Positions 3,313-32,766 of a stretch of 64,000 nucleotides of DNA are shown here, one piece after another. The notes beneath the pieces are model-generated. The model ran no database searches. It saw only the letters and a list, made by a program, of their open reading frames with translations, and had not been told where the DNA came from. Each line of letters opens with the position of its first letter. The stretch's first letter is position 1. This DNA is from Sulfuricellaceae bacterium (GTDB lineage Bacteria > Pseudomonadota > Gammaproteobacteria > Burkholderiales > Sulfuricellaceae): positions 2,996 through 66,995 of the forward strand of contig JASJPB010000007.1 in NCBI GenBank assembly GCA_031426915.1, in the 5' to 3' direction. Both the position numbers and the translations under genes were made by a program.

Positions 3313-4617
3313 TCAGGCCTTGCCCGCCCCGGCGCAGCTATCGGGGGCCAGCAGCAAAAGGTCGCTGGTTCTCTGCAGCAACTGGCTCTGGCCTTCAATT
3401 TCCGCCAGCGAGGCTTGATATTCCTGAGAAATCTTCTGCATCAGTTCATGAAAAACAGGGTAGGGCACCCGGTCGAACTGCATTTTTGCTTCGCGCAGGG
3501 ATTCCCGGGCCGTTTGGGCCTCGATTTTCGTCGCCTCCAGCTTGTTCCGGGCGAGTTTGATATTTTCGAATGCTTGCTCCGTACCTAGCTGGATATCCAG
3601 ACGTGCCTGCTCGTCCAGGGTGCGGTTCACCACTACGGCCGCACTGAGTCGGTCCCAGTTGGCGCGCTCGGCTTCCTGAAAGTTGGCCGGCATGTTGATG
3701 CTCACGCCGGCGGTGGCAGCATAACCCCGCCTGTCGTTCGCATACTCGTCAATGTAGCTCACGCCCAGATGGAGGTCTGCATTTACGCTGCTGCCGGCGC
3801 CGATTTCGCGGTTATACAGCAGGGCTTCGCGCTGGGAGCCGAGCTTCCTGACGTCTACCGAGTGACGTTGCGCCGATTGGGTGAGTTCCGCGCTGGACAG
3901 GCAAAGTTGCGGAAAATCCGGCTGTGTCGGCTCAAAGGCGATAATGCTCTGGCCCAGGATCGAGTGCAGGGTATTCAGGGCCACGCGCTGCAGGGCGCGG
4001 AAACGTTGCAGCTCATCCCGTGCTGCAGCCAGGCCATTGTTGTAACGCTGATTTTCGCTGTCGGTCCACATGCCCTTCTCATGCAGTTTCCGGGCTGCGG
4101 GGGCATTGGCGGACAGTGAGTTGAGATACTGTCCGGTCAATCGTTCCGCCTGAATGTATTGCCAATACAAGGTGTACTGGTTGCGTAGCTGGTGCTGCAA
4201 ATGACGTCGCGCGTCATCCAGCTCGATCGAATTCAGCTGGATTTGCGTTTGCGCTGCCTTTATCGCCTCGAGTTGCTGTGCGCGGCCGCCCAGCAGTGGG
4301 TAGCTCAGCCCGACATGAGGCTGTAGCGCATTGTAGTTTCGGGTCAGATTGTCGGTGACGATCTGCCTGTGGTGCCCGACATCCAGCCTGCCGGAGATTT
4401 GCATTCCTTCCCTGGATTGTTCCAGGCGCAACAGTTGCTGCGCATAGTTGATTTGCGATTCCAGCGCCTTGAGACGTAGCGAGGAAGAAAGCCTGTCTTC
4501 AAGTTTGGACAGCGGCAATATTTCGGCGCGGGCCGCGAGCGGGACCAGCAACAGGCCCAGCATTGCGTAGCGCAAGGCGCGATTTTTTCTTGTGGTGATC
4601 TTTGATACGTGTGGCAT
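3313..4617 (-). CDS. TolC-family outer membrane channel
   Basis: Signal peptide (LLLVPLAARA), coiled-coil Gln/Ala-rich repeats, two beta-hairpin segments (VGLSYPL; GVSINMP). Confidence 0.85.
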   Translation of the reverse strand: MPHVSKITTRKNRALRYAMLGLLLVPLAARAEILPLSKLEDRLSSSLRLKALESQINYAQQLLRLEQSREGMQISGRLDVGHHRQIVTDNLTRNYNALQPHVGLSYPLLGGRAQQLEAIKAAQTQIQLNSIELDDARRHLQHQLRNQYTLYWQYIQAERLTGQYLNSLSANAPAARKLHEKGMWTDSENQRYNNGLAAARDELQRFRALQRVALNTLHSILGQSIIAFEPTQPDFPQLCLSSAELTQSAQRHSVDVRKLGSQREALLYNREIGAGSSVNADLHLGVSYIDEYANDRRGYAATAGVSINMPANFQEAERANWDRLSAAVVVNRTLDEQARLDIQLGTEQAFENIKLARNKLEATKIEAQTARESLREAKMQFDRVPYPVFHELMQKISQEYQASLAEIEGQSQLLQRTSDLLLLAPDSCAGAGKA

Positions 4618-4634: not shown

Positions 4635-5942
4635 CTACCAGTGCGGAATCCTAGCCCATATTTTCTCCGGCACATAGGGGTGCCAGAGACGAATGCGCAG
4701 AAATTCCCGCAGCATGGAAAGCAGCTCCACCATATGAATCGGCAAGCGGTAAAAAGGGTAGAGCGGCACCAGCCACAGCATCTTCAAGCGGGGCGTGGAG
4801 GCGATGTCGTTGGCAATCAGCATCTTGATGAAAAGGAAGAAGGCGGTCAGCCAGTACATGACGGTCAGTAGCGCCGGCGCGGAGAAGGGGTCGCTCAAAG
4901 CGAAATAAATCACGCTCCACAGCGCGAGAAAGGGAAAAACGACCCGGAACAGCAGGATGTCGACGAAAACAAGCGCATTGACGATGCCAAAGTGCCAGAA
5001 GTGATAGAGATCTCCCTGCTTGTGCAGGCGGATCTTGACCATGTTCCGGGTCCAGCGGCTGCGTTGGCGCAACAGCCAGCCATAGTGGTCTGGCACATCG
5101 GTCCAGACGATGGCATCCAGCGCAAAGCGCAGTTTCCAGCCCTGCTTGCGCAAGCGTACCGTGAGGTCGGTGTCATCCCCCAGTCCCGAGTCGTAGCCGC
5201 CCAGTTGACGCATGGCGACGGCACGGAACATGCTGCCCGCACCGGGCAGAATCGACAGCAGATTCAAGGGTGCGCGCCACAGTCTGGAAATGCTCACGTT
5301 GAGCGCATATTCGCACTCCTGGAAGCGCGTGACCAGGTTGCGGGTCGCATTCTTCACGCGCAAATTCGCGGACACTGCGCCTACCCTGGGGTCGGCAAAA
5401 GGGGCGAGCAAATGCTGAATGATGCCGGGCTGCAGCTCGCAGTCCGCATCCGGCACGAAAATGAAATCTCCGCGCGCCAGAACCAGGCCGATATTCAGGC
5501 TGCTGGGCTTGCCGTTGTGGTTTTTTGCCTCGAATACGCGCACTCGCCCGGTTTTTTCCCATGCCCGTGCGCGCGCCACGCTCTCGTCGGTGGAGTAGTC
5601 GTCGACGAAAACGACCTCAAGATTTTGATAGCCGCATTGCAGTGCGGATTGAATCATTTTCGCAATGCTGTGCTCGACATTGCGCCCCGCGATGACGATG
5701 GAAACCAACGGGTTCGCGGGCAGGCCGGAACCTTGCGCGGCGGCCAGCGCGCGGGGGTAAAACAGGCAGGTCAGCCACAGCAGGATGTCGGGCAGCACAA
5801 AACGCATCAGGACCAGCACCACAAACCAGAAAAACAGATTGGCGGAAGTCAGCAGTTCGCCCAGTACGCGCGTCATCCCGCCCATGCTCACCAGGCTCAG
5901 CGGCGAGAGAAAGTACCCCAGGAAGCCATTCAGGTGTTCCAT
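4635..5942 (-). CDS. Processive GT2 polysaccharide synthase (PgaC/IcaA/HAS-like)
   Basis: VSIVIAGRN, DDYSTD, GKPSSLN, DADC (DxD), GDDTD, QRSRW (QxxRW); N- and C-terminal TM helices. Start chosen at MEHLNG. Confidence 0.9.
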   Translation of the reverse strand: MEHLNGFLGYFLSPLSLVSMGGMTRVLGELLTSANLFFWFVVLVLMRFVLPDILLWLTCLFYPRALAAAQGSGLPANPLVSIVIAGRNVEHSIAKMIQSALQCGYQNLEVVFVDDYSTDESVARARAWEKTGRVRVFEAKNHNGKPSSLNIGLVLARGDFIFVPDADCELQPGIIQHLLAPFADPRVGAVSANLRVKNATRNLVTRFQECEYALNVSISRLWRAPLNLLSILPGAGSMFRAVAMRQLGGYDSGLGDDTDLTVRLRKQGWKLRFALDAIVWTDVPDHYGWLLRQRSRWTRNMVKIRLHKQGDLYHFWHFGIVNALVFVDILLFRVVFPFLALWSVIYFALSDPFSAPALLTVMYWLTAFFLFIKMLIANDIASTPRLKMLWLVPLYPFYRLPIHMVELLSMLREFLRIRLWHPYVPEKIWARIPHW

Positions 5943-5945
5943 GAT

Positions 5946-6181
5946 CCTAGAAACCTCAGTTGGACGTGGTGGAGTGCGCGGTTTTTGGGACGCAGGGCAA
6001 GGCGCAATGACGCGGAATGGTCGTTCCATTCCAAGGAATTGCAACGCAGCCATGCGTCCCAAAAACCGTGTAATCCACCACGTAGCGGCCTCACCAAATG
6101 GGTGAACCCATGATTAACGAAGAAATTTATTATATTCATTGCATTACACACTCAATGGAGCGGTCAACTGAGGTTTCTAGG
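5946..6181. mobile_element. MITE-like element, 236 bp, with terminal inverted repeats
   Basis: CCTAGAAACCTCAGTTG (5946-5962) is the exact reverse complement of CAACTGAGGTTTCTAGG (6165-6181); ATGAT direct repeats at 5941-5945 and 6182-6186; internal imperfect inverted repeat. Confidence 0.8.
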
Positions 6182-7171
6182 ATGATGCTCCGCGCTGGTT
6201 GCCAGTTGAGTTGCCAGGTCGCTTTCCTGGTTGAGGTCGACAACTTGTGCCTGCAGCGCATTTCCCGCGCCGGCAAGAAAGCGCTTGAGCCATATATCCG
6301 CCCCGGCCCTGTCCGTTGCCGGTAGCAGGATCATCAGGCGCTCCTCTCCATAGCGCCCGATCTTGTCGGAATTCCTCAGACTCGCCGCCATGTGAAACAC
6401 CCGCTTTTCCGTTTGGGCCTCATCGCCCGCACCGAGCCGCACCATGATCAGGCTGAAGGCCGTGCCATAACGCTTGGCGCGGCGCATCTCGTCCTCGAGC
6501 AGGAACATGAAAACATGCCGGCGATAGATAGGGCGACCCTCTCCTTCCAGCAGCAGTTCTTCCTCCTGGTCGAACAGGCGTCCATTGTTCAGGGCCGCCA
6601 TGCCGAGAGAGCTCAGGCGGTAGCTGTGGACATCCTTGTGCAGCAGCTGGTCGCCCGGGGTGCGTGTCTGGCAGACCATGCACAGGCCTTCCACTTCCGG
6701 TACCTGGAACGAGGCGTGACAGCTGTGACAAGTGAAGTTTTCGCCCGGCACATCGTGGTCCGTGCCCAGGTCTTCCAGGCGGCCATGGCATTTCGGGCAG
6801 ATTCGCCCCTTGCCGTCATGGGCAAAGGCCTCGGCTGGCCCCACGTAGCCGCAGCGGAAATGGTGCAGCAGCGAAACCGGCGAGATGTGTGAGGATTTGC
6901 ACGCGGAGCATGCTTCGCGCACGTTGACGTGATGGCTCCCGCAGGAAGGGCAAACGCTCAGGCGATCGAAAAACTGTTTGTCCAGGTAGTCGGCCGTGGC
7001 GAGATATTCGAGGTCCTGCATCATCTGCTCGGCAACGCCCGTTTCAAACTGCGGAAAGTGGGTATATCCATGGGCGTGCCCGGCCTGCCACTGGGGCAGC
7101 AAATGGCCACCGCATTGCTGAACCTGCTGCAATACCACCATGGGTTCGGCGTACTTGTTATCCATAGCCAT
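6164..7171 (-). CDS. Multi-CxxC Zn-binding (TackOD1-like) domain fused to a degenerate GGDEF domain
   Basis: CPSC, CSAC, HFRC, CPKC, CHSC, CMVC; C-terminal EMRRAKRYGTAFSLIMV...LRNSDKIGRYGEERLMILLP. RBS GAGGAG before ATG 7171. Family name recognised from memory. Confidence 0.75.
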   Translation of the reverse strand: MAMDNKYAEPMVVLQQVQQCGGHLLPQWQAGHAHGYTHFPQFETGVAEQMMQDLEYLATADYLDKQFFDRLSVCPSCGSHHVNVREACSACKSSHISPVSLLHHFRCGYVGPAEAFAHDGKGRICPKCHGRLEDLGTDHDVPGENFTCHSCHASFQVPEVEGLCMVCQTRTPGDQLLHKDVHSYRLSSLGMAALNNGRLFDQEEELLLEGEGRPIYRRHVFMFLLEDEMRRAKRYGTAFSLIMVRLGAGDEAQTEKRVFHMAASLRNSDKIGRYGEERLMILLPATDRAGADIWLKRFLAGAGNALQAQVVDLNQESDLATQLATSAEHHPRNLS

Positions 7172-7194
7172 TTGGTGTTCCTCCTCTCTTGTCA

Positions 7195-8301
7195 CTAACT
7201 CTTGCCCCACAGCCATTCGCCCCACGATGAAACGGGGATCCTGACCTGTACCCTGGAATCGAAAATCAGCTGCTCCCGCAGCGCCGGGTCAAGCTTTTCC
7301 AGGTTGTCCAACGCGATTTTCACCGGACGGTACTGGGACCACTGGTTGTGCTGCCAGAAATAGCGGGTCAGCGTTTCGGGCAGTTTGGCGGCTTCAGGCG
7401 TAAGCGCTACGATATGCCCCGGCAAACTTTCTGAAATGCCCGGGATGCTGATGTAGGCGGGCATGCCGACACTGAGCCTGGAAATTTCCGCGGGGTCGGT
7501 GAAGACCATCACATAGGCCCGGTCGACATCGAAAATGCGGTAGATCGGCGTTCCCGCCTCGACCACGGCATTGGGATGCGCCGCGCAATCGAGCACTTGG
7601 CCCGAAGCGGGGGCCAGTAGCGGTTGCGTGCTGACGCGCTTGCGGGCCGTCTCTATCAGGCTTAACTGCTGTTCCAGGGAAGCGACTTTTTCCACGCTGC
7701 CTTTTTTGATCTGCGCCAGGTTCAGCTGCGACTTTTGCCAGGCTTCCCTCAGCGCAGCCGATTCCGCAGCCGCGCGCTGCCCGTCCGAACGGGCGGCGTC
7801 GCGCGCCATGCGTCCGATGGCGCGGGCATCGTACAGCTCGTCATAGGCCAGGGAGAGCGTCCTGGTCTTTTCTGCCGAGGAAGCTGCGGCCTGATAGTTT
7901 TGCCGCGCCATCTGAACTTCCATGGCGGCCGCGGCAGCGCCCTCGTTCTGGTTGATCCGTTCCAGATGCAATGAGGTCTGCCTGGTCTGGTAATCCGAGG
8001 CATATTGCTCATCGAGAATGAAGTTGCTCACGATGACCAGCGGCTCACCCGCTTTCACCTTGCTGTAGCAACTGGTGATCTGCTGGGTGATCTGGGCCCG
8101 GTAGAGCGGGGCGACCGGTATCAGATCGCCATGCAGCAAGCCTTCCACACGTACATTGGCGGGCGGCACGGCGACCGCATACGCGAAAGTGCCGCCAAGC
8201 AGCGGGACCAGGGCGATTCTGGCCCAGCGCCGTTTCTTGCCTGCCGCCACCGCGCCGGGGGTTGATTTTGACTGGGGTTTGCCGCGGAAATGCATGATCA
8301 T
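7195..8301 (-). CDS. HlyD-family periplasmic adaptor (membrane fusion protein)
   Basis: Single N-terminal TM after basic stretch, biotinyl-lipoyl half motifs (VKAGEPL; LLAPASGQV), long coiled coil. Confidence 0.88.
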   Translation of the reverse strand: MIMHFRGKPQSKSTPGAVAAGKKRRWARIALVPLLGGTFAYAVAVPPANVRVEGLLHGDLIPVAPLYRAQITQQITSCYSKVKAGEPLVIVSNFILDEQYASDYQTRQTSLHLERINQNEGAAAAAMEVQMARQNYQAAASSAEKTRTLSLAYDELYDARAIGRMARDAARSDGQRAAAESAALREAWQKSQLNLAQIKKGSVEKVASLEQQLSLIETARKRVSTQPLLAPASGQVLDCAAHPNAVVEAGTPIYRIFDVDRAYVMVFTDPAEISRLSVGMPAYISIPGISESLPGHIVALTPEAAKLPETLTRYFWQHNQWSQYRPVKIALDNLEKLDPALREQLIFDSRVQVRIPVSSWGEWLWGKS

Positions 8302-8305
8302 CTCC

Positions 8306-9202
8306 TTAATGTGAAGCTTGCGTCAGGATGGCGCTCAGGGACGGATAGTCGTTGATCGCTATGCCGCGATAGAACGGCGCATGAGTCTCCAGGCGCGCAT
8401 CGATCTCAAGCAGGGCTGCGCTGAACTGGTCAAAGGTGGCGCCGGCATAGCTGATATCCCTGCTGGCGCCCTGGTTTGTGGTGACACCGAACCACCACGG
8501 TTTTTTCATCGCATCCAGCTGCCCCAGCGCTTTTGCGGCGATGCGCAGGCCTTCGCCGGGAGCGCTACGGTAGGCCATCATGACCGTGGCATCGAGCTTG
8601 TCGGCCGCGCTCTCCAGTATGGATTTTCCTGCCCCGTCGGGAGCTGCGATGGCGGCGAAGAACGGAACCACCGCGGCCGTCAGCGGGAGCTTCATGCTTT
8701 GGCTGGCCTGGCGTATGTTGCCCAGCAGCTCCAGATACCCCTGGACGACCTGTTCGCGTGCGCCTGTTTTCCATTCCGGCAGCGCATGGGGCTCGATGTC
8801 GAGGCACAGCCCATCCATGAGCTTGCTGCGCTGCTGGAAATCGAGCAGTTCGTCCACCGCCCTGGGGATTTGCCGGCCGCGCCTGCTCCAGGCAGGGTCG
8901 CCGGCCACGGCGTAAAAAGCGATGCTTTCCTCGCGGCAGGCATGGAGGACAGCGTTTTGTTTTTGCCCGCCCGCGAACAGTTGTGCCCGCTCGCTGGGCG
9001 GGATCGAGTAAAACACGCTGCGGAAATTGAATTGACGTAGCGTAGCCATGACCTGATCCGATTCCGACAGCGGGGTGCGCCATACCCAAAGACTTTTGGG
9101 TATGGCGGCAAATGTGCTGCTGGCCCAGACCTGGCCAGACCGGCCCGCGATAGCAAGGCCAAACCCTGCGGCCAGGTACTTGAGGCATTGGCGACGCTGC
9201 AT
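8306..9202 (-). CDS. TAT-exported TIM-barrel protein, putative glycoside hydrolase (GH18-like)
   Basis: Twin-arginine-like signal MQRRQCLKYLAAGFGLAIAG; DGLCLDIEPH resembles the GH18 DxxDxDxE motif. Confidence 0.6.
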   Translation of the reverse strand: MQRRQCLKYLAAGFGLAIAGRSGQVWASSTFAAIPKSLWVWRTPLSESDQVMATLRQFNFRSVFYSIPPSERAQLFAGGQKQNAVLHACREESIAFYAVAGDPAWSRRGRQIPRAVDELLDFQQRSKLMDGLCLDIEPHALPEWKTGAREQVVQGYLELLGNIRQASQSMKLPLTAAVVPFFAAIAAPDGAGKSILESAADKLDATVMMAYRSAPGEGLRIAAKALGQLDAMKKPWWFGVTTNQGASRDISYAGATFDQFSAALLEIDARLETHAPFYRGIAINDYPSLSAILTQASH

Positions 9203-9237
9203 TGTCTTTCCCCTTTGACGTGAAACAAGCCCATGCT

Positions 9238-9297
9238 GTAGGAGCGAGCTTGCTCGCGATAGCAACCCGTGATGATCGCGAGCAAGCTCGCTCCTAC
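9238..9297. repeat. GTAG-type REP doublet (hairpin)
   Basis: GTAGGAGCGAGCTTGCTCGCGAT...ATCGCGAGCAAGCTCGCTCCTAC, 23-bp perfect arms; identical arms at 63371-63427. Confidence 0.9.
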
Positions 9298-9302
9298 GGT
9301 AC

Positions 9303-10550
9303 CTAGGCGGATGCGACCGCTCCGTCGAGGTTCAGACCGATGGGAGCTTCATTGAGCCTGTCGGCTTGCTCTTTTCCCTGAACTGCTTGTTGCAATCCGT
9401 GCTTCCAGTCCACTTTGGGCAGAATGGATGCTTCATTTACCCGGGAAGCCGCATTCGTCGCTTTTTGCAGCATCTGTCCGATCACCTCGCGGTTCAGCAG
9501 GTGCGGTTCGAGGCCCAGACCCTGCAAGCCGGAATGGACTGCGTGGTAATAGTGGTTTTCATTTTCCACGCGCGGGTTGCGAAGATGCTGGATGTCCACT
9601 TTCACGCCGTGAGCGGCGGCACTTTCCTGGACCAGCCAGGCCAGTTCCATGACGGTGAATTGCTCGGTGAACTGGTTGAAAACCCGGAATTCGCCGCTGT
9701 TGGCAGGATTTGTCACCGCCAGCTCGATGCATCGCAGCGTGTCGCGGATATTCAGATAACCCCTGACCTGGCTGCCGCTGCCATACACGGTGAGCGGCAT
9801 GCCGATCGCGGCCTGCACCACGAAGCGGTTGAGTACCGTGCCGAAGATGTGGTCGTAGTGGAAACTGGTGCACAGCTCCGGATCATCGCCGATCTCGTCG
9901 GTGGCTATGCCGTAGACCACGCCCTGATTCAGGTCGGTGACGCGAAGGTCCCACATCCGGCTGGCAAATTCCAGATTGTGGGAATCATGGACCTTGGACA
10001 GATGGTAGAGGGAATGGGGTTTCTTGGGATAGAGCACCCGGTCCTTGCGGCCGTTGTGCGTGACGTCCAGCCACCCCTCCTCGATATCGATGTTGGGCGT
10101 GCCGTATTCTCCCATGGTGCCCAGTTTCACCAGGTGGGCCTGCGGGCAATGTTCGCGCATGGCAAACATGACGTTGAGCGTGCCGATCACATTGTTGCAT
10201 TGCGTATAAACGGCATTGTCCTGACTCAGCATGGAGTAGGGCGCCGATGGCTGTTCGCCGTAATGGATGATGGCGTCCGGCCGGAAGTCATGGCAGAGTT
10301 CGTGCATGAGCTGACCGTCATCGGCGATGTTCCCGACCACCGCCTCGATGTGGCGAAATTTTTTCTGACGCCAGTGCCGCACGCGCTCCTGGAGCGTCGG
10401 CACGGGCTCAAGAGGCGTTGCCCCGACCTCTGCTTCCCAGCCGCGTTTGGCCATGTTGTCCACCACCACGACATCGTTGCCGCGCGCGGAAAAATGCATG
10501 GCCGTAGGCCAGCCCAGATAACCATCTCCACCCAGAATGCAAATTTTCAT
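9303..10550 (-). CDS. sqdB: UDP-sulfoquinovose synthase
   Basis: GGDGYLGWPTA, HYGEQPSAPYSM, LVKLGTMGEYGTPNIDIEEG, SLYHLSKVHDSHN, TDLNQGVVYG, GTVLNRF: SqdB/SQD1 signature motifs. Confidence 0.95.
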   Translation of the reverse strand: MKICILGGDGYLGWPTAMHFSARGNDVVVVDNMAKRGWEAEVGATPLEPVPTLQERVRHWRQKKFRHIEAVVGNIADDGQLMHELCHDFRPDAIIHYGEQPSAPYSMLSQDNAVYTQCNNVIGTLNVMFAMREHCPQAHLVKLGTMGEYGTPNIDIEEGWLDVTHNGRKDRVLYPKKPHSLYHLSKVHDSHNLEFASRMWDLRVTDLNQGVVYGIATDEIGDDPELCTSFHYDHIFGTVLNRFVVQAAIGMPLTVYGSGSQVRGYLNIRDTLRCIELAVTNPANSGEFRVFNQFTEQFTVMELAWLVQESAAAHGVKVDIQHLRNPRVENENHYYHAVHSGLQGLGLEPHLLNREVIGQMLQKATNAASRVNEASILPKVDWKHGLQQAVQGKEQADRLNEAPIGLNLDGAVASA

Positions 10551-10861: not shown

Positions 10862-11482
10862 ATGAAATTGCCGGGCTATGTTCTTGCATCATTGTGTCTG
10901 CTTGGCTTCGGACTCTGTTCGGGCGCGCGGGCAAACATCTATGCCTATACTGCGGCTGACGGTAGTGTGAGCCTGAGTAACGTGCCGGCGGACAATCGCT
11001 ACAAAATACTGGTTCCCGATCACAAGGCAGCGGCTGTCGTCTTGCCGCTGCCCGAGACGGGCAGGCTGCCGCTTGCCCGCGCCGGCAAGTCCCGCTACGA
11101 CCAGATCGTCGAGGAAGTCGCGCGCGCCCATGGTCTCGATGGTGCGCTGCTGCATGCCGTCATCTCGGTGGAGTCGCACTACAACCCCAGGGCCGTTTCG
11201 AAGAAAGGCGCTGCCGGGCTGATGCAGCTCATGCCGGCGACCGCGAAGCGCTATGGTGTTTCGGACTCGTTCGACCCGGCTCAGAACCTGCATGGCGGCG
11301 CGCGATACCTGCGCGATCTGCTGACCCTGTTCAACAGCGACATGAGCCTGGCGCTGGCCGCTTACAACGCGGGGGAGAACGCGGTCATCAGGCACGGCAA
11401 CCGCATTCCACCCATCCGCGAAACCAGGGATTACGTGCCCAAAGTGCTCGGCTTTTACCGCAAATACCTGGCCAGTTCGTAA
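10862..11482 (+). CDS. Lytic transglycosylase (SLT family)
   Basis: AVISVES, GAAGLMQLMP, ALAAYNAG, ETRDYV; signal peptide. Confidence 0.95.
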   Translation: MKLPGYVLASLCLLGFGLCSGARANIYAYTAADGSVSLSNVPADNRYKILVPDHKAAAVVLPLPETGRLPLARAGKSRYDQIVEEVARAHGLDGALLHAVISVESHYNPRAVSKKGAAGLMQLMPATAKRYGVSDSFDPAQNLHGGARYLRDLLTLFNSDMSLALAAYNAGENAVIRHGNRIPPIRETRDYVPKVLGFYRKYLASS

Positions 11483-11513
11483 AATGGCGGCCACCCTGGA
11501 AAGGAGAGAGAAA

Positions 11514-11894
11514 ATGTTCAGCACGCTGATCGTCGACGATAACGACGCCTTCCGCCAGTCTCTGCACCAGGTCCTGTCGCGGCGTTTCCCATCCATGCGC
11601 ATCGTCGAGGCCGCGGATGGCGAGGGTGCCCTGTATCAGGCCGCATACCATCATCCCGATCTGATTTTCATGGACATCAGAATGCCGGGGAACAATGGTC
11701 TCGTCATCACCCAGGCCATCAAATCCTCGGATTTACACCCCATCATCTGCATCATCACCAGCCACGATTTGCCGGAATACCGCGATGCGGCATTACGTTG
11801 CGGCGCGGATCACTTCATGGTGAAAGGCGAGTCGAGCGAAGCGCAGATTGCCGCCCTCGTGGACGGCGTCCTGACCGTTAGGCGTCCGTCCTGA
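11514..11894 (+). CDS. Single-domain response regulator (NarL-like receiver)
   Basis: TLIVDD, DLIFMDIRMPG, IITSHD, FMVK; RBS AAGGAG. Confidence 0.9.
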   Translation: MFSTLIVDDNDAFRQSLHQVLSRRFPSMRIVEAADGEGALYQAAYHHPDLIFMDIRMPGNNGLVITQAIKSSDLHPIICIITSHDLPEYRDAALRCGADHFMVKGESSEAQIAALVDGVLTVRRPS

Positions 11895-12157
11895 ATCTCC
11901 TGCAAGCGACGTCACGCATTTCTCTCTGCCCTGGAACCGCCCTGTAGCTCCGTTTCGCACTTCTGCTTTTCCCTACAGTCAATCCCCCCCCCGCAAGTTA
12001 AGTCCGGCGCGTAGCGAAATGCGGGGTTCGCCTCGGTGTCAATTTGTCGCACTTCATTAACAATCTGTCACAAGGATTTCAGTGGCGTGGGTGTCATGTC
12101 CAGTCGGCAAATCCGGGTCTAGCAAGTTTTGGATTAATGCGAGTGAGGGAGGCAGTT

Positions 12158-15100
12158 ATGGAACCCGAAGCCATCAACAACTTTAGCGGGGTGCTACGAA
12201 AAGTATGGCGCCTGATTTTTCTGTCTATCCTGATAGGAGTGTTAAGTCCCCAGTATGCGGCGGCGCTGACCATCAACGTGGTCGACCAGAACGGTGCTGC
12301 GATAACCGGAGGTTTCCGCTGGCTGATTGAAGAGGATGCCACCAAGGCATCCGTTCCAGGCCAGCTTGCCGGCGGTACCAATCTGGCCCTCAGCTTCCAC
12401 ACCAGCTACATGCCGGTAGTGGATGCAGGCAGGACCGCGAGTTCCTCTGCTGCCGTCACGCTTCCTGTGCCGGCCCAGCCGAAGCGCTACTTTGTCTCGG
12501 TCCTGCCGGATGGCAGTTACCAGATGGGGGGCGCAGCCGTCGTCGAGGGTGGTGAGAACGGCACGGTGAAAATCGTGGTGAACAAGACCCCGATCCCCAC
12601 CGCGCAAATATCCCTGTTCGTGTTCGAGGACAACCAGCCCATCAATGGTGCTCCCGATCTGCCTCAGGAATTGGGCCTGGCGAATTTCTCGGTCACCCTG
12701 AAGGAAGCCGGTGGCACGTATGGCGCCTCTGGTGGCCAGGTCATCCAGGATGCCTTCGGCAACCCGATCGGAACCAGCTACCAGCAATTGCCCAACGGTG
12801 ATTTCGTCTACAACACGCCGGGCGATCCGACGAGTGGTCCGGTGGTGCAAGCCCTGGGCAACGGATTCATCAAGACCGGGGCCGACGGCACGGTATTGAT
12901 CAAGTACCTGGCTCCTGCCAAGTACACCCTGGAGGTGATTCCTCCGGCGGGTTCCGGATTCATCCAGACCTCCACCATCGAGGGCACCAAGGGTATCGAC
13001 GCCTGGGTGAAGGCCAACGAGCCGAGCTTCTTCCAGGAATTCGGGCCGCCCGGACATCACGTGTTCGTCGGCTTCGTCAAGACCAACTTCAAGGATGCAT
13101 CCGTGCTTAACGGATCCACCACCATCAGCGGCAAGGTGGTGAACATGCATAGCAGCCGGCCGCCGAATTTCTCGTTTTTTAACGGCGACCCCTTTCCGCA
13201 GTGCTGGATCGGCCTGAACGAACTTGCCGTGACGACCGGGCGGGCGGTTTATACCACCCCCTGCAAGCCGGACAGCAGCTTCACGATTCCCAGCGTACCG
13301 CCCGGTTCCTACCAACTGGTGATCTGGGATGAAAACCTGGATGTCGTGATTGCCTCCAACAACGTCACGGTGAACCCGGATGGCTCGTGCCGAACAGCGA
13401 ATGGCAGCTGTGACCTGGCGGAAGTGCCGGTCTTCAACTGGTTCGGCAAACTGGAAAGCCGGGTGTTTTTCGATGGCAACGAAAACGGCTTCAGGGATGA
13501 CGGTGAAGTCGGCATTCCGGGCCAGGCGGTGAACATCCGCTTCCGCGACGGCAGCATTTACCAGTCGCAGGTCACCGATGCGAACGGTGAAGTCAAATTC
13601 AACGAAGTGTTCCCCTTCTTCAACTGGCTCATCGCCGAAGTGGATTTCGCGCGCTTCAAAGCCACGGGCGCCACCGTCGTGGTGGACGCAGGTGGTCCGG
13701 TTCCGCCCCACAACGGCTGGGCCGTGCCCTCCTGGAACAAGCTCAACCCGCAACCTCAGTCCGAGAACGCCGGCCTGCCTTACCGCACTGAAACCGGCCC
13801 GGTCCTGCTGGAAGGCATCCAGACTTTCCTCGGCCAGACCAACGTGATCGAGTGGGGCAAGAACAACTATGGCCCCGGCGACAACGGCGGGATTGCGGGC
13901 ATTGTCCATTACGGCATTACCCGTGCCGAGGCGGACCCACGCTACGCTGCGGCGGAAAACTGGGAGCCGGGCATTCCCCGCGTTCAGGTGAACCTGTACC
14001 GGGATTGCAACGGCGACGGCATCATCGACAAGCCCGACTGCACCCTGACCACCGGTCTCAACAGTGTAACCAGCTTCATTCTGGCCGATGTGGACAACTG
14101 GCCTTTCGGCAACTTCCCGGGCGCCGAGGATGTCGATCGTGATGGCAACAATCTATTCGACCAGGGCGATGCCTACAAGATCGGCACCACCGACAGCTGG
14201 GACGACAAGCTTCCCACCGGCTGCCAACTGGATGCAAGCGGCGTGCCTTTCACTTCCAACGGCTTTACCACCGACTGCTATGACGGCCTGCGCAACTTCA
14301 ACCAGGTGCGCCCGGCAGTGTTTGACGGCGGCTATGCCTTTGGTCCGCCAGCCGGGGACGTGGCTCTGCCACCCGGCAAGTACGTTGTCGAGGCAGTTGC
14401 TCCGCGCGGCTATGTGACACTCAAGGAAGAAGACAAGAACGTGGATTACGGCGACGCCTACAAGCCGAGCCCCCTGTTCCTGCCGCCGGTTTGCGTGGGC
14501 GATCCCCATCTTGTGCCCGCCGAGCTCTCCCTGTTCCCCGGTGTTCCCGTGGATCCGTCCATGGCTGGACAGACCCGGCCCCTGTGTGATCGCAAGAGTG
14601 TCGAAGTTGTCCAGGGCAAGAACGCGGCCGCTGACTTCTTCATGTTCACCGAAGTGCCGGTTGCCAGCCACATTGTCGGCATGATCCTCAACGACCTGGC
14701 CAATGAGTTCGACCCCAACGCGCCTACATTCGGCGAGAAACTGGCGCCATCCTGGGTGCCGGTGTCGATCCGTGACTGGACCGGCAAGGAAATCTCCCGC
14801 GTGTACTCTGACCAGTGGGGCACCTTCAATGCACTGGTGCCGTCCAGCTACTCGGTGAACATCCCCATGCCCTCCGGCGTGGCTCCCAACATGCTCACTA
14901 CCTGCATGAACGACCCCGGCCCGATCCCGGACGCGGGCGGCAATCTGGTCATCGACCCCTACTTCGACCGCCAGTACAGCCAGTTCTGCTACACCTTCCA
15001 GTACCTGCCGGGCAAGACCACCTACCTCGACACCCCGGTGCTGCCGGTGGCTGCTTTCGCCGGTCCAGGGCAATTCCCGGTGGACTGCGAATTCACCGAC

Positions 15101-17275
15101 GGTACGCCGGTTGTCTACACGGTGGAAGGAACGACCTCGGGTGGTGCCAGCCATCACGGCCCGTATGTGCCGACGCCGAGTCTCAATATCGCCACCCAGC
15201 CCAGGCTGCGCATCGTTTCGGCTGGCAGCGTGCAGGTGGCCAATCCCGCCTATGACGGTACCGCCGCAACGCCCAGGTTCATTGCTCGCGACTTCGGCTT
15301 CGGCGCACAGGGAGCCAACAGCAAGGTGACAATCAACAACGTCAGCCTGCCGATCATCTCCTGGGATAACGGCGTCATCGTGGCGCGCGTTCCGAGCGGG
15401 GTGGCCACCGGCCAGCTGGTCGTGACACGCGACAACACCACCAGCACCAGGACTTCCCTGCTGGGTGCCACGGTTACGGTAGGCGGTGCATTGCCGACCG
15501 TCGTTGCTCCTGGCGGCAGCATCCAGACCGCCATCGACGGCACTTTGCAGGGCCGCCTGATCCTGGTTCCGCCCGGTCGCTATGACGAGTTGGTGATCAT
15601 GGACAAGAAGGTGAAACTCCAGGGTTGGGGCGCGCTTGCGACCAACATCAACGCCGCCAAGGTGCCTGCTGAAAAGCTCGCGAAATGGCGTGCAGATGTG
15701 ACCCGGAAGTACGCCAACGGAGGCGCTGCACGCACCTTCGACCTGGTGCCTGGCCAGACGGTTGGCTTCAACGCTCCCAACAACGAACCCAACCTGTTCA
15801 ATACCGAAGAAGGTCCCGGCATCCTGGTGGTGTCCCGCTCCAGCGGCGGCCAGGCGTTCAACAATACCAACCCGGCCCGCATCGACGGCTTCAGCATCTC
15901 AGGCGGTGACTCCGGCGGCGGTATCTTCGTCAACGGCTTCGCCAAATACCTGGAGATCAGCAACAACAAGATCTTCAGCAATGCGGGCACCTACGGTGGC
16001 GGCATCCGTATCGGCCACTTCAATGTGGAAACCAACGATGCCGACAACGACTTCATCAATATCCACAACAACCATATCGCGCAAAATGGCGGTCAGGGCG
16101 GTGCGGGTGGCGGTGTGTCGATCTACGCCGGCACGCAGGTGTACAACCTTGCCAACAACTATATCTGCGGCAACTTCACTGCCGGCCACGGCGGCGGCAT
16201 CGGCCACCTGGGCAGCAGCAACCGCGGTGTGATCGCCAACAACACGGTGATCTTCAACCAGTCCTTCGACCAGGGGACCAACGTCTCCGGCGGCGGTATC
16301 TACATCGGCGGACAAGCACCGCTGGTGGCCGGTACCCTCTCCCCCGGCACTGGCAACGTGACCGTGAGCGGCAACCTGATCCAGGGCAACCTGGCCGGGG
16401 CCGGCGACGGTGGCGGCATCGCGGCACAGTTCGTCAACGGGGCAGACATCGTCCCGGCGCCCAACAACGTGACCAACTGGAACCGCCTGACCCTGGTGAA
16501 CAACATGGTGGTGGACAACATCGCCGGCATGGCGGGTGGCGGTATCTCCCTCCAGGACGTGGCCTTGTCGACGGTCGCCAACAACACGGTTGCCGACAAC
16601 CACAGTACGGCCACTGCGGGCGCCGCCTTTGCGCCTAACAGCCCGAACCAGTCCACGGCCCAGCCGGCGGGGATCGTTTCCCGTGCCCACAGCACACTCC
16701 TCGCCAATACCATCGGTAACGGTCCAGCGGTAAGCACCTACAAACGCTATGCCAACCCGACGCTGGTGAACAACATCGTGTGGCACAACCGCTCGTTCTT
16801 CTGGACCATCGACAACACCACTGCGCCGCCCACCTTCGGGTTGCAGCCTTATGCCGCGAACCCGTACTGGGATCTGGCGGTAGTGGGCACCGCGTTGCCG
16901 ACCCTGTTGAACCCCAGGTTCAGCGACCTGACCGATGCCACGGGCTATCACGTGAGCAACATCGCGGTTAACCCGATGTTCATGGGCGAGGCGATGATCG
17001 GACCGCGCGGGGAGATTATCCAGCAACCGGAGTTCACCACCGGTATCGATACTGCTCCGGCTTTCGACGAGGGCGGCAACTGGATCGACGTGCGTTTCGG
17101 CATCGGCGTTCTGGCTGCACCCAGCCTGCTCAGCCCGGCTGGCGATTTCCACCTGCAACCTGGCTCCCCGGTCATCAATCTGGGAACCCAGAGCGCTGGC
17201 GTGACGCCGACCACCGACATCGATGGACAAGCCCGCTCCAACCCGCCCGACATTGGTGCGGACGAGCAGCAGTAG
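12158..17275 (+). CDS. Giant secreted protein (~1705 aa): SdrD-B-like, IPT/TIG, right-handed beta-helix, choice-of-anchor-Q-like C-terminus
   Basis: Signal peptide ending PQYAAA; RVFFDGNENGFRDDGEVGIPG; FGAQGANSKVTINN...SWDNGVIVARVP; SIQTAID plus NNxIxGN/GGGI repeats; FHLQPGSPVINLG...DIDGQARSNPPDIGADE. Confidence 0.85.
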   Translation: MEPEAINNFSGVLRKVWRLIFLSILIGVLSPQYAAALTINVVDQNGAAITGGFRWLIEEDATKASVPGQLAGGTNLALSFHTSYMPVVDAGRTASSSAAVTLPVPAQPKRYFVSVLPDGSYQMGGAAVVEGGENGTVKIVVNKTPIPTAQISLFVFEDNQPINGAPDLPQELGLANFSVTLKEAGGTYGASGGQVIQDAFGNPIGTSYQQLPNGDFVYNTPGDPTSGPVVQALGNGFIKTGADGTVLIKYLAPAKYTLEVIPPAGSGFIQTSTIEGTKGIDAWVKANEPSFFQEFGPPGHHVFVGFVKTNFKDASVLNGSTTISGKVVNMHSSRPPNFSFFNGDPFPQCWIGLNELAVTTGRAVYTTPCKPDSSFTIPSVPPGSYQLVIWDENLDVVIASNNVTVNPDGSCRTANGSCDLAEVPVFNWFGKLESRVFFDGNENGFRDDGEVGIPGQAVNIRFRDGSIYQSQVTDANGEVKFNEVFPFFNWLIAEVDFARFKATGATVVVDAGGPVPPHNGWAVPSWNKLNPQPQSENAGLPYRTETGPVLLEGIQTFLGQTNVIEWGKNNYGPGDNGGIAGIVHYGITRAEADPRYAAAENWEPGIPRVQVNLYRDCNGDGIIDKPDCTLTTGLNSVTSFILADVDNWPFGNFPGAEDVDRDGNNLFDQGDAYKIGTTDSWDDKLPTGCQLDASGVPFTSNGFTTDCYDGLRNFNQVRPAVFDGGYAFGPPAGDVALPPGKYVVEAVAPRGYVTLKEEDKNVDYGDAYKPSPLFLPPVCVGDPHLVPAELSLFPGVPVDPSMAGQTRPLCDRKSVEVVQGKNAAADFFMFTEVPVASHIVGMILNDLANEFDPNAPTFGEKLAPSWVPVSIRDWTGKEISRVYSDQWGTFNALVPSSYSVNIPMPSGVAPNMLTTCMNDPGPIPDAGGNLVIDPYFDRQYSQFCYTFQYLPGKTTYLDTPVLPVAAFAGPGQFPVDCEFTDGTPVVYTVEGTTSGGASHHGPYVPTPSLNIATQPRLRIVSAGSVQVANPAYDGTAATPRFIARDFGFGAQGANSKVTINNVSLPIISWDNGVIVARVPSGVATGQLVVTRDNTTSTRTSLLGATVTVGGALPTVVAPGGSIQTAIDGTLQGRLILVPPGRYDELVIMDKKVKLQGWGALATNINAAKVPAEKLAKWRADVTRKYANGGAARTFDLVPGQTVGFNAPNNEPNLFNTEEGPGILVVSRSSGGQAFNNTNPARIDGFSISGGDSGGGIFVNGFAKYLEISNNKIFSNAGTYGGGIRIGHFNVETNDADNDFINIHNNHIAQNGGQGGAGGGVSIYAGTQVYNLANNYICGNFTAGHGGGIGHLGSSNRGVIANNTVIFNQSFDQGTNVSGGGIYIGGQAPLVAGTLSPGTGNVTVSGNLIQGNLAGAGDGGGIAAQFVNGADIVPAPNNVTNWNRLTLVNNMVVDNIAGMAGGGISLQDVALSTVANNTVADNHSTATAGAAFAPNSPNQSTAQPAGIVSRAHSTLLANTIGNGPAVSTYKRYANPTLVNNIVWHNRSFFWTIDNTTAPPTFGLQPYAANPYWDLAVVGTALPTLLNPRFSDLTDATGYHVSNIAVNPMFMGEAMIGPRGEIIQQPEFTTGIDTAPAFDEGGNWIDVRFGIGVLAAPSLLSPAGDFHLQPGSPVINLGTQSAGVTPTTDIDGQARSNPPDIGADEQQ

Positions 17276-17287
17276 CCGCGGCACTGA

Positions 17288-17310
17288 CCCGCCGGGTTGG
17301 TCCCGGCGGG
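17288..17310. other. GC-rich intergenic hairpin
   Basis: CCCGCCGGG-TTGGT-CCCGGCGGG between the giant gene and the first cupredoxin gene; no U-tract on the + strand. Confidence 0.5.
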
Positions 17311-17329
17311 CCGAAAAAAGGAGAAGATC

Positions 17330-18532
17330 ATGCGTATCCCAAATTTTCGTAAAATGCTGATTCCCCTGGCGATCGCCGCCCTGGGCGCGGCATCCCTTCC
17401 TGCCGGCGCCGCGGCGTTCGTGCAGTGCCCCAGCGACAGCAACGGGGACGCCATCCCCGACCTGGCGGGAGCCGACCCGAGCGTGGTCTGCAAATCCCTG
17501 ACCGCCAGCGACGGGTTTGCCACCATGGCCGATGGCACGGTGCTTTACACCTTCGGCTTCCACGATGCGACCGGCGTGCCGCAGGACCAGGTGATCGCGC
17601 AGACAATGATGGCCGCCGAGATTTCCGCGCCGACCATCGAACTTCAGGAAGGCAACAAGTTCTACCTGTCCCTGACCAACGTCGGCATGAGCATGCGGCC
17701 CGACCTGTTCGACCCCCACACCGTGCACTTCCACGGCTTTCCCCAGGCCGCGCCCGTGTTCGACGGCATGCCGGAGGGGTCGTTCGGCGTGAACATGGGG
17801 TCGAGCATCACTTACTTCTACAACATCGTCGAACCCGGTACTTTCCTCTATCACTGCCACATGGAAGCCACCGAGCACATGCAGATGGGCATGCTGGGGA
17901 ACCTTTATGTGCGCCCCCTCCAGGACGGAACGCCCAAGGTGTACAACAGCAAGACCTACACCAAATTCGCCTACAACGACGGTGATGGCTCGACCGGCTA
18001 CAACAAGAGCTATCCGCTCCAGTTGAGCGGGTTCGACCGCACCTTCCACGAGGACCACCTCGCAATTCAGCCTTTGCCCTTCTCGTTCATGCGCGACACC
18101 TACACCATGATCAACGGACGCGGCTATCCCGATACGATCGACCCGAACCCGTTGCCGGCCCCGGCTGAAAACGGCGGGCTGGTGTCGCAGAAAGTCAGTT
18201 CCCTGGTGACGCTCAACCGGGCGAGCGAAGGGGAGAAACTGCTGCTGCGCTTTTCCAACCTGAGCGTAACCAGTTACTACACCGTCACCATTCTCGGCTT
18301 GCCGATGCGGGTGGTCGGCAGCGGCGCCCATATCGCACGCGGACCGGGCGGACAGAACCTCGCCTACGACACCAGTTCCATCACCATCGGTGGCGGCGAA
18401 GCGGCGGACGTACTGGTCGATACCTCGGGTGTCCCGGCAGGAACCTACTTCCTTTACACCACCAATCTCAATTACCTGAGCAACGACGCGCAGGATTTCG
18501 GCGGAATCATGACCGAAATCCGCGTCAACTGA
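17330..18532 (+). CDS. Two-domain multicopper-oxidase-family subunit A (type 1 site in domain 1)
   Basis: Signal peptide; PHTVHFHG and YHCHMEATEHMQMGM in domain 1; no His motifs in domain 2. Confidence 0.88.
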   Translation: MRIPNFRKMLIPLAIAALGAASLPAGAAAFVQCPSDSNGDAIPDLAGADPSVVCKSLTASDGFATMADGTVLYTFGFHDATGVPQDQVIAQTMMAAEISAPTIELQEGNKFYLSLTNVGMSMRPDLFDPHTVHFHGFPQAAPVFDGMPEGSFGVNMGSSITYFYNIVEPGTFLYHCHMEATEHMQMGMLGNLYVRPLQDGTPKVYNSKTYTKFAYNDGDGSTGYNKSYPLQLSGFDRTFHEDHLAIQPLPFSFMRDTYTMINGRGYPDTIDPNPLPAPAENGGLVSQKVSSLVTLNRASEGEKLLLRFSNLSVTSYYTVTILGLPMRVVGSGAHIARGPGGQNLAYDTSSITIGGGEAADVLVDTSGVPAGTYFLYTTNLNYLSNDAQDFGGIMTEIRVN

Positions 18533-18554
18533 TCCGCGAAACGAGGAGGACGAC

Positions 18555-19850
18555 ATGAACCAGCTGACCTGCAAATACCCGCGATTGCTCAACGTCGCCA
18601 TGACGCTGCTGCTGTTTGCGGCCACCAACATGGCATGGGCCGTCGTTGACGGCGTCACCGCCACCACCTTCAACCTGACGGCCAGGGCGGACTACATCTC
18701 CAGCGCGGACGGCAACGTCCACTATGCCTGGGGTTACGCCAACGGTGCCGGCCGGATGCAGTATCCGGGCGTCACCATGATCGTCAACCAGGGCGACACG
18801 GTCACCGTCAACCTGAGCAACGCGTTGCCGGTACCCGTTCCGGTGTCTGCCGTTTTCCCCGGTCAGGCCAATGTCGTCGCCAGCGGCGGGTCGTCCGGCC
18901 TCATGACCAACGAGGTATTGCCCGGTGGCACGGTGACCTACACCTTTACCGCCACCAACCCCGGAACCTATCAATACCACAGCGGAACCAACCCGGCGCT
19001 ACAGGTGGAAATGGGACTGGTGGGCGCACTGATCGTGCGGCCAAACACCGCCGATCCGTTGCACCAGGCCTATGCCCACCTCAATACCGGCTTCGACCAC
19101 GAATACCTGTTCCTGATCACCGAGATGGACCCGCTGATCCACGCCCAGGTGGATGCGCAGGTCGCAGCCAATCCGGCTGCCGCCCCCATCGTGGACACCT
19201 CGGGCTTCAGCCCGACGCTGTGGTTCATCAACGGACGCAATGCACCGGATACCCTGCTTCCCGCGGGCGCCGGGGCGCCATTGCTGCCGACGCAGCCGTA
19301 CAACATCGTGCCGCGCATGCATGCCGGAGAAAAAATCCTGCTGCGCGTGGTCAATGCCGGGCGCGACCTGCATCCCTTCCATACTCACGGCAACAATTTC
19401 TGGGTCATGGCCAGGAACGGGCGGCTACTGGAAAGCGCACCGGGAGTCGGTCCGGATCTGGCCTACTCGGATTTCACCATGCGTATCGTCCCGGGCGAGA
19501 CCTACGATGCGACCTTCGAATGGACTGGCAAGAACCTGGGCTGGGACGTCTATGGCCATGCACCGGGCGACGCCCTGGCGCCGAACGAATATGCGCCTGA
19601 CCATGGCAAGCCGATCCCGGTGATCCTGCCCAGCGTCCAGGATCTGTCCTATGGTCCGCATTACAGCGGCAGCCCCTACCTGGGACAGTTCGGCGCGCTG
19701 CCACCGGGGCAGACCCCGCAAGGCGAGAACGGCGGTTACTTCCACATGTGGCATTCCCACAATGAGAAGGAAATCACCAACGACGACATATTCCCCGGCG
19801 GAATGATGACCATGCTGATCATCGAACCTGCTGGCGTGACCATACCGTAA
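18555..19850 (+). CDS. Two-domain multicopper-oxidase-family subunit B (T2/T3 His in domain 2, no type 1 Cys)
   Basis: Signal peptide; domain 1 has AVFPGQ and YHSG only; domain 2 has HPFHTHG and WHSHNEKE. Confidence 0.88.
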   Translation: MNQLTCKYPRLLNVAMTLLLFAATNMAWAVVDGVTATTFNLTARADYISSADGNVHYAWGYANGAGRMQYPGVTMIVNQGDTVTVNLSNALPVPVPVSAVFPGQANVVASGGSSGLMTNEVLPGGTVTYTFTATNPGTYQYHSGTNPALQVEMGLVGALIVRPNTADPLHQAYAHLNTGFDHEYLFLITEMDPLIHAQVDAQVAANPAAAPIVDTSGFSPTLWFINGRNAPDTLLPAGAGAPLLPTQPYNIVPRMHAGEKILLRVVNAGRDLHPFHTHGNNFWVMARNGRLLESAPGVGPDLAYSDFTMRIVPGETYDATFEWTGKNLGWDVYGHAPGDALAPNEYAPDHGKPIPVILPSVQDLSYGPHYSGSPYLGQFGALPPGQTPQGENGGYFHMWHSHNEKEITNDDIFPGGMMTMLIIEPAGVTIP

Positions 19851-19867
19851 ACCAGGGAGCAGCAATC

Positions 19868-21817: not shown

Positions 21818-21860
21818 CGGCGGAGGCCGGCTCCCGTGATCCGGGGGCCGGCCAGCCTGA

Positions 21861-22415: not shown

Positions 22416-22432
22416 CCAAGGGGAGGCGAGCC

Positions 22433-32744: not shown

Positions 32745-32766
32745 GCGGTCAACTGAGGTTTCTAGG
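32745..32766. repeat. Solo end of the 5946-6181 MITE
   Basis: GCGGTCAACTGAGGTTTCTAGG is identical over 22 bp to 6160-6181. Confidence 0.85.

Follow-up and report, generated by a model that had tools for sequence, protein, structure and literature searches.

A TackOD1 protein with a degenerate GGDEF domain as a candidate cyclic di-GMP receptor of a polysaccharide synthase-exporter in a Sulfuricellaceae bacterium

A 335-residue protein encoded in the genome of a Sulfuricellaceae bacterium joins a TackOD1 zinc-ribbon domain to a GGDEF-fold domain that has lost the catalytic residues of a diguanylate cyclase and has kept those of the allosteric I-site, at which such cyclases are inhibited by their product, cyclic di-GMP (c-di-GMP). 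The gene lies in a stretch of 64,000 nucleotides (assembly GCA_031426915.1, contig JASJPB010000007.1, positions 2,996 to 66,995 of the forward strand), the whole of which is referred to here as the window, and it is the fourth of six genes in a closely spaced minus-strand operon. Shown for this protein are its domain make-up, its fold, the loss of its catalytic residues, the selective conservation of its I-site, its solubility and a conserved gene neighborhood. By analogy with known receptors, we consider it likely that the protein binds c-di-GMP. With somewhat less confidence, we favor the view that it acts in the cytoplasm as the regulatory subunit of a trans-envelope polysaccharide synthase-exporter, as a c-di-GMP receptor of the PelD and PssE kind. 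The features of the gene and its product are as follows.

6164..7171, minus strand: gene for the TackOD1 plus degenerate-GGDEF protein, 335 aa (open reading frame, translation, Pfam, AlphaFold2 model)
6614..7060, minus strand: TackOD1 domain, aa 38-186 (Pfam PF18551)
6239..6556, minus strand: trimmed GGDEF-fold domain, about aa 206-311, without the substrate-binding alpha1/alpha2 segment (Foldseek, family profile, PleD alignment)
6479..6481, minus strand: R231, equivalent to PleD R313, the arginine that a second GGDEF domain contributes to the I-site in trans (alignment, conservation)
6365..6376, minus strand: I-site core R266-N-S-D269, equivalent to PleD R359..D362 and PelD R367..D370 (direct reading, alignment)
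6335..6349, minus strand: degenerate active site (A-site) G275-E-E-R-L279, replacing GG[DE]EF (direct sequence reading)
6281..6283, minus strand: R297, third I-site arginine, equivalent to PleD R390 and PelD R402 (alignment, conservation)

The degenerate GGDEF domain, its I-site and the TackOD1 domain

The open reading frame begins at the ATG at 7171, in front of which stands a GGAGGA ribosome-binding site. A longer version beginning with a GTG at 7225 was dropped in favor of this start, which has the ribosome-binding site and which the N-termini of homologues match. The protein has no transmembrane or other hydrophobic segment (maximum KD19 0.72) and is therefore taken to be soluble, as a first-pass annotation of the same DNA had proposed. 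Its AlphaFold2 (AF2) model, built from a 48-sequence alignment, has a mean predicted local distance difference test score (pLDDT) of 92.

Against the Pfam GGDEF family (PF00990) the protein scores 21.0 bits, which is below the cut-off of 23.8. Therefore, assignment of the C-terminal domain to the GGDEF class rests on the comparison of the family profile with the PDB and on the fold. When the AF2 model was compared with the PDB by Foldseek, all of the top 50 matches were GGDEF domains, including those of PleD, WspR, DgcR, SiaD, DosC, GcbC and FimX, and the family profile matched DgcR (6zxm) with an E-value of 3.7e-9. The DgcR alignment contains a gap of 9-10 residues at the place of the D-x-FKxxNDxxGHxxGD segment. 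Distant relatives of the protein clear the PF00990 cut-off, one (L031) with 75 bits and another (L025) with 56 bits.

For a residue-level comparison, the GGDEF domain of PleD was aligned to the family hidden Markov model; the numbering of the PleD sequence used matches the published landmarks R313, D327, N335, D344, R359, D362, G368-F372 and R390. In this alignment the metal-binding aspartate D327 coincides with R245 of the target, N335 lies in a gap, and the nine residues D336-D344, including the guanine-binding aspartate, are deleted. Residues G275..L279 align with G368..F372, so that GGEEF has become GEERL, with E277 in the place of PleD E370. The GG[DE]EF motif is absent from all 205 full-length relatives. 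The sequence GEERL itself occurs in just one of them and is thus a local accident, the family consensus at this place being D-x-x-H-[LYF]. Because the metal-binding aspartate, the guanine-binding segment and the GG[DE]EF motif are all missing, the last from every relative, we judge from the alignments that the catalytic site is gone family-wide and was lost long ago. The first-pass annotation had described the protein as a TackOD1-like domain fused to a catalytically dead GGDEF domain on the strength of the GEERL A-site, and the loss is more thorough than that reading of the sequence alone had seen.

Traces of the ancestral arrangement are found elsewhere in the family. The distant member with 75 bits against PF00990 has kept a full-length, if degenerate, GGDEF domain, and some members (L025, P0100, P0105 and P0134) carry an N-terminal REC domain, which suggests that the family descended from REC-GGDEF response regulators.

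In PleD, the allosteric site is formed by R359, D362 and R390 together with R313 from a second GGDEF domain in trans (PMC7288161). R266 and D269 of the target fall on R359 and D362, and the RxxD motif is separated from the A-site by five residues (KIGRY), as it is in PleD (RAID-LPCRY-GGEEF); the placement of R-N-S-D exactly five residues upstream of GEERL, which had drawn attention to the motif in the first place, is thereby borne out at the level of individual residues. Conservation was assessed after a HMMER scan of 1.84 billion cluster representatives, in which the family comprised at least 974 clusters at 50% identity (E <=1e-30) from about ten phyla, and the best 150 of these clusters were used. 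Across the 150 representatives, D269 (94-95%), R266 (88%) and R297 (85%) rank first to third in conservation within the C-terminal domain, and R231 is 81% conserved. All four I-site residues belong to the top ten of the C-terminal region by conservation, and a separate MAFFT alignment of the C-terminal regions gave the same figures. The full R266/D269/R297 triad is present in 152 of the 205 relatives, and R266 and R297 are mostly kept or lost together. In the first 48 homologues R266 was found in 65%, and its conservation looked weak before the wider scan. The first-pass annotation had staked its receptor proposal on RxxD being conserved among operon homologues, and conserved it is (arginine 88%, aspartate 94%), although not in every lineage.

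The N-terminal domain scores 143.7 bits on PF18551, for which the cut-off is 32 (E 6.3e-42), far above chance, and in relatives the helical region of aa 1-37 that precedes the Pfam match is part of the same domain. TackOD1 was defined by eleven conserved cysteines, arranged as five CxxC motifs, plus HxxC (PMC5847659). The target has C74-PS-C77, C88-SA-C91, H104-FR-C107, C125-PK-C128, C148-HS-C151 and C164-MV-C167. This set of five CxxC motifs and a single HxxC matches the definition and, together with the Pfam score, places the protein in the TackOD1 family, in agreement with the earlier call of a TackOD1-like zinc finger. The ligands are enough for three predicted zinc sites. All 12 are invariant across the 48 homologues, and they are 95-100% conserved in the 150 diverse representatives.

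The operon and its relatives

The remaining genes of the operon, and an insertion within it, are listed here in the order of transcription.

9303..10550, minus strand: UDP-sulfoquinovose synthase (SqdB/SQD1 orthologue), first operon gene (470 bits, NF041015)
8306..9265, minus strand: conserved periplasmic protein, 319 aa, family unknown (open reading frame, alignment)
7195..8301, minus strand: HlyD-type membrane-fusion protein (MFP; periplasmic adaptor) with one N-terminal transmembrane segment (Pfam HlyD_3, HlyD_D23)
5946..6181, no strand assigned: insertion of 236 bp resembling a miniature inverted-repeat transposable element (MITE) (inverted repeats, empty-site alignment)
4635..5942, minus strand: processive membrane synthase of glycosyltransferase family 2 (GT2), 435 aa, with multiple transmembrane segments and a QRSRW motif (Pfam, NCBIfam)
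3313..4617, minus strand: TolC-like outer-membrane factor (OMF) (Pfam OEP)

The GT2 protein has hyaluronan, chitin and cellulose synthases as its relatives in the PDB. Alignment with the relative L003 places its true start at the ATG at 5942; a 475-aa form from a TTG start was rejected, as its additional 40 codons are MITE sequence. A Pfam scan found no PilZ or other known c-di-GMP-binding domain in the window GT2. The operon thus encodes together a GT2 with multiple transmembrane segments and a QxxRW motif, an HlyD-type MFP and a TolC-type OMF, which is the composition of a tripartite synthase-exporter. The TolC-like gene is conserved downstream of GT2 in the clade of the window, in Acidithiobacillus and in Eremiobacterota.

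The association of the regulator with these genes is widespread. A genome scan yielded 44 loci, from Gamma- and Betaproteobacteria, Acidithiobacillus, Alpha- and Zetaproteobacteria, Eremiobacterota, Planctomycetota, Omnitrophota, Caldisericota, Nitrospinota, Victivallaceae and Bacteroidota, the closest being that of a Sulfuricella denitrificans metagenome-assembled genome (81% identity). A homologue of the window GT2 lies directly downstream of the target homologue in 36 of 40 informative loci, spanning about ten phyla, and in relatives the stop codon of the regulator overlaps the GT2 start by 8-17 nt, both of which uphold the link to the adjacent GT2 that the first-pass annotation had drawn from the window. 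After profile iteration, an HlyD-type adaptor was found to adjoin the TackOD1 gene in 41 of 47 loci.

A possible clue to the nature of the product comes from the first gene. The UDP-sulfoquinovose synthase aligns over its full length with Arabidopsis SQD1 (1qrr) at 470 bits and matches NCBIfam NF041015 at 446 bits, and the gene comes first in the operon in Sulfuricella-like, Gallionellaceae, Acidithiobacillus (where it is disrupted by an insertion sequence), Eremiobacterota and alphaproteobacterial loci. No other glycosyltransferase was seen beside it among the called genes and open reading frame scans of the loci, no search having been aimed at SqdX or SqdD. Given the position of SQD1 and this absence of another glycosyltransferase, the exported polymer may contain sulfoquinovose. 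Our literature search found nothing linking UDP-sulfoquinovose with an HlyD-type exopolysaccharide (EPS) system. The 319-aa protein probably starts at the ATG at 9202, with a signal resembling those of the twin-arginine translocation pathway (MQRRQCLKYL), and it has an invariant D156-x-E158-P motif. It matches no Pfam or NCBIfam family; with Pfam hits allowed up to an E-value of 5 there is a weak match to glycoside hydrolase family 18 (E 0.06), and a single-sequence AF2 model (pLDDT 39) was unusable. The protein may be a TIM barrel, a periplasmic glycosidase of the type found in synthase-dependent EPS operons.

In the window, the junction between the regulator and GT2 is interrupted by the MITE. 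The element has perfect 17-nt terminal inverted repeats and is flanked by a 5-bp target duplication (ATGAT at 5941-5945 and 6182-6186). It sits at the exact site where the regulator stop and the GT2 start overlap in relatives, two of which (L003 and L001) show the empty site by alignment. As a result of the insertion, the last five or so residues of the regulator have been rewritten from a QSWNT-type end to HHPRNLS, the ribosome-binding site of GT2 has been displaced, and the GT2 start codon is buried in a hairpin; the RNA fold of the element has a predicted energy of -126 kcal/mol (z -10). In groundwater metagenomes, k-mer depth is 5000-9000 within the element and 9-145 in its flanks, a 40- to 600-fold difference, so the element is highly multicopy. 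Contigs break at both of its ends, and an empty-site contig of a related population was found in run X3. Elsewhere in the window there is a third exact copy of the 17-nt terminal repeat (32750-32766, minus strand) for which no partner arm turned up in the window; this copy may represent a solo end or part of a related element.

Other genes surround the operon. Divergent from it, at 10862-11894 (plus strand), are an SLT lytic transglycosylase and a stand-alone REC response regulator, and the same pair lies beside the operon in the close relative L003. They are followed at 12044-24760 (plus strand) by a run of large secreted-looking proteins, which includes a 1743-aa protein with an SdrD_B-like domain, three multicopper-oxidase-like proteins, one of them with Big_9/cadherin repeats, and an S8 subtilase, also with Big_9/cadherin repeats.

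Proposed mechanism and competing explanations

We propose that the protein follows the logic of PelD and PssE. A rise in cellular c-di-GMP would lead an intercalated c-di-GMP dimer to bind the I-site pocket, to which one protomer would contribute R266, D269 and R297 and a second one R231, so that two dead GGDEF domains become cross-linked as in product-inhibited PleD. The change would be relayed through a rigid, three-zinc TackOD1 domain docked on GT2 or on the adaptor, and polymerization and export would be switched on. The binding of c-di-GMP, the dimerization, the direct contact with GT2 and the activating sign of the effect are all suggested by analogy with PelD, PssE and BgsA/BgsB/TolC. 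As to the supply of ligand, a protein of dCache-PAS-PAS-GGDEF architecture encoded at 41068-43356 (minus strand) matches GGDEF with 160 bits; this canonical cyclase indicates that the organism has c-di-GMP signaling.

Several observations weigh against this picture. The I-site arginine is replaced in clades that keep the operon, namely Eremiobacterota (A, T or S), a group of Omnitrophota and Planctomycetia (W) and some alphaproteobacteria. The module can therefore work without this residue, and c-di-GMP control is not universal in the family. In four loci there is no GT2 homologue downstream. Two alphaproteobacterial loci, L012 (8938-13397) and L013 (4934-11739), have no homologue of the window GT2 beside the gene for the TackOD1 and degenerate GGDEF protein: the former has an ATP-binding cassette (ABC) transporter of the type I secretion system type and HlyD instead, and in the latter, from Azospirillum oleiclasticum, the order is OEP, SqdB, MFP and the TackOD1 gene, followed by a 433-aa protein with no Pfam match. 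Nor was a natural fusion of regulator and GT2 found among the relatives; the longest of them (P0105 with 896 aa, P0100 and P0182) were candidates, and all proved to be REC-TackOD1-GGDEF proteins with unannotated tails and no GT2. Canonical GGDEF or EAL genes, for cyclases or phosphodiesterases, are not enriched beside the loci (2 of 48), a count that is uninformative. Given that some loci pair the TackOD1 gene with other genes, the partner may be the adaptor or exporter and not GT2 as such, and the constant partner of the family may be an MFP-based exporter.

The Planctomycetia locus L025 (8560-13761) has another arrangement. A REC-TackOD1-GGDEF protein with tryptophan for the I-site arginine is followed by a 239-aa membrane-anchored, adaptor-like protein that matches the family MFP profile, by GT2, and then by a 440-aa protein reading like a TolC-type channel and an apparent stand-alone REC, the last two judged by sequence reading. 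The gene order is thus unlike that of the window and the components are alike. The idea that REC replaces a lost I-site as input was dropped, as RxxD is kept in 10 of 12 REC-bearing representatives, the L025 type combining REC with tryptophan. A PilZ protein compensating in the tryptophan clade was also rejected; the extra L025 gene between the TackOD1 gene and GT2 looks, from sequence reading and the profile match, like a short membrane-anchored adaptor of MFP type.

How else might the retained I-site be explained? The protein could be a structural or assembly subunit without a ligand, in which arginine and aspartate are kept for folding or for contacts with GT2. Such a role would be in keeping with the clades that have lost R266 and kept the operon, and the aspartate of RxxD is structurally conserved in many GGDEF domains. 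However, all other functional residues of the ancestor have decayed, whereas the four I-site residues all rank in the top ten for conservation, three of them taking the first three places in the HMM-based alignment, and R266 and R297 tend to be retained or lost as a pair. On this evidence we regard a subunit without a ligand as rather unlikely, while ranking it ahead of the other alternatives. It is also conceivable that the pocket accommodates another nucleotide, such as (p)ppGpp or a different cyclic dinucleotide, since structures of PleD with ppGpp or pppGpp as well as c-di-GMP are in the PDB (9g85, 9g86); given that the retained residues correspond precisely to the I-site set for c-di-GMP (PMC7288161), we hold this to be quite improbable. 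An active, non-canonical diguanylate cyclase, finally, is effectively excluded: although NCBI names one Acidithiobacillus homologue 'diguanylate cyclase' and E277 occupies the position of PleD E370, the family lacks GG[DE]EF throughout, the metal-binding aspartate is an arginine and the guanine-binding segment is deleted.

Two further explanations place the signal in the TackOD1 domain. The first-pass annotation had suggested a metal or redox sensor that gates GT2, so that oxidation of cysteines or loss of metal would control the synthase instead of, or besides, c-di-GMP. Eleven conserved cysteines and a histidine, in a host that is apparently a groundwater relative of sulfur oxidizers, speak for this suggestion, but nothing positive points to sensing. 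The invariant Cys4 and Cys3His sets look like structural zinc ribbons, the same ligand set recurs in about ten phyla and in archaeal response regulators, as is typical of such ribbons, and across the loci the operon has no conserved genes for redox partners; we consider this part of the earlier proposal improbable. Less probable again, and on a level with the other-nucleotide explanation, is a c-di-GMP-responsive nucleic-acid binder in which the zinc ribbons and the N-terminal helical region contact DNA or RNA and control expression of the operon. A resemblance of TackOD1 to double zinc ribbons and the PriA insert has been pointed out by Galperin, and a REC-winged helix-turn-helix (wHTH)-TackOD1 architecture exists (PMC5847659). 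Nevertheless, the gene lies mid-operon between the adaptor and GT2 genes, the overlap of its stop with the GT2 start in relatives suits a stoichiometric subunit, and the protein has no helix-turn-helix match in Pfam.

A wider reading that joins these strands is possible, although we would put it forward as doubtful in its entirety. TackOD1 together with a dead GGDEF domain would mark a large class of soluble receptors for c-di-GMP, with at least 974 clusters at 50% identity in about ten phyla, acting on trans-envelope, MFP-dependent machines, mostly with GT2 and occasionally with ABC exporters; TackOD1 would be a new signal-transmitting docking module; and in the clade of the window the machine would polymerize UDP-sulfoquinovose, supplied by the SQD1 orthologue of the operon, into a secreted sulfonated polysaccharide. 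We know of no class of sulfonated sulfoquinovose polymer made by a bacterial synthase-dependent system. If the link to the UDP-sulfoquinovose synthase is true, groundwater and acid-mine bacteria may make an undescribed sulfonated exopolysaccharide.

Comparison with known systems

Degenerate GGDEF domains that act as receptors through the I-site are known from a few systems, namely PelD, PssE and YdaK, to which the present protein would add a widespread family of another architecture. By analogy, it would work as these proteins do while belonging to none of their families, and would represent a new receptor architecture. Its new features are that it is soluble, that a zinc-ribbon domain stands in place of a membrane anchor, and that it would serve a tripartite Gram-negative exporter. 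The family also amounts to a natural experiment, in which the catalytic half of a cyclase has eroded and the four residues of its allosteric site are among the best conserved.

One of the closest known systems is that of PelD, which resides in the membrane, has transmembrane helices and a GAF domain, and serves a GT4 enzyme, PelF. PelD and the target both have a degenerate GGDEF domain without GG[DE]EF, and in both an RxxD motif is joined by a downstream arginine. In PelD, R367, D370 and R402 are needed for c-di-GMP binding and for Pel production (PMC2170427), and the triad R266, D269 and R297 of the target is equivalent. In contrast, the target is soluble, has TackOD1 in place of the transmembrane and GAF regions, and is encoded with a processive GT2 and an MFP/OMF exporter. 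It scores 16.4 bits against the Pfam PelD_GGDEF family, below the cut-off of 27, and therefore is not a member of the PelD family; Pfam and NCBIfam scans of the six operon proteins found no Pel families.

The operons of PssE and of YdaK (Bacillus subtilis) have a BcsB-like partner rather than MFP and TolC. Both proteins are membrane-anchored Gram-positive proteins without a zinc ribbon and are related to the target by the GGDEF fold only. Nevertheless, PssE of Listeria monocytogenes offers a close parallel in its site: its RxxD stands five residues ahead of a dead motif, DKDDA, each protein takes up two c-di-GMP (dissociation constant 0.79 uM), and PssE is essential for EPS synthesis (PMC4125290). 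The target shares with it the dead GGDEF domain, the RxxD motif at the same spacing and the position of the gene beside a GT2, in what would here be an EPS operon; for PssE the GT2 is PgaC-like (PMC4125290). The active cyclases PleD, WspR and DgcR are alike in that the four I-site residues of PleD align with R266, D269, R297 and R231. They differ in that their site serves product inhibition, whereas the target has no catalytic residues and has TackOD1 between the position of REC and the GGDEF domain.

At the level of the machinery, the operon resembles systems in which the c-di-GMP site is on the synthase itself. In cyanobacterial cellulose synthesis, XcsA binds c-di-GMP by a PilZ domain. The rhizobial mixed-linkage glucan system BgsA/BgsB/TolC is a tripartite GT2-MFP-TolC synthase that is activated by c-di-GMP bound at the C-terminus of BgsA (PMC13438883). 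Both BgsA-BgsB-TolC and XcsABC combine, as the operon does, a processive inner-membrane GT2 with an HlyD-type adaptor and a TolC-type channel (PMC13438883). Whereas their site is on GT2, the window GT2 lacks a domain of this kind, and the candidate site is located in a soluble protein encoded separately.

As for TackOD1, the only paper found to mention the domain is the 2018 domain census by Galperin, in which the function of the archaeal domain was called obscure (PMC5847659). Our literature searches found no description of a TackOD1-GGDEF protein as a receptor, in keeping with the earlier remark that the fusion was not known as characterized, and none that joins a zinc ribbon, a GGDEF domain and a glycosyltransferase in this role; a census of second messengers in Acidithiobacillus does not describe a protein of this type. 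The archaeal response regulators share with the target the same zinc-ribbon domain of five CxxC and HxxC motifs (PMC5847659). Their architectures, however, are TackOD1, REC-TackOD1 and REC-wHTH-TackOD1, none with a GGDEF-type domain, and they are found at type IV pilus loci (PMC5847659), whereas the bacterial operon described here would give TackOD1 its first functional context since the domain was defined.

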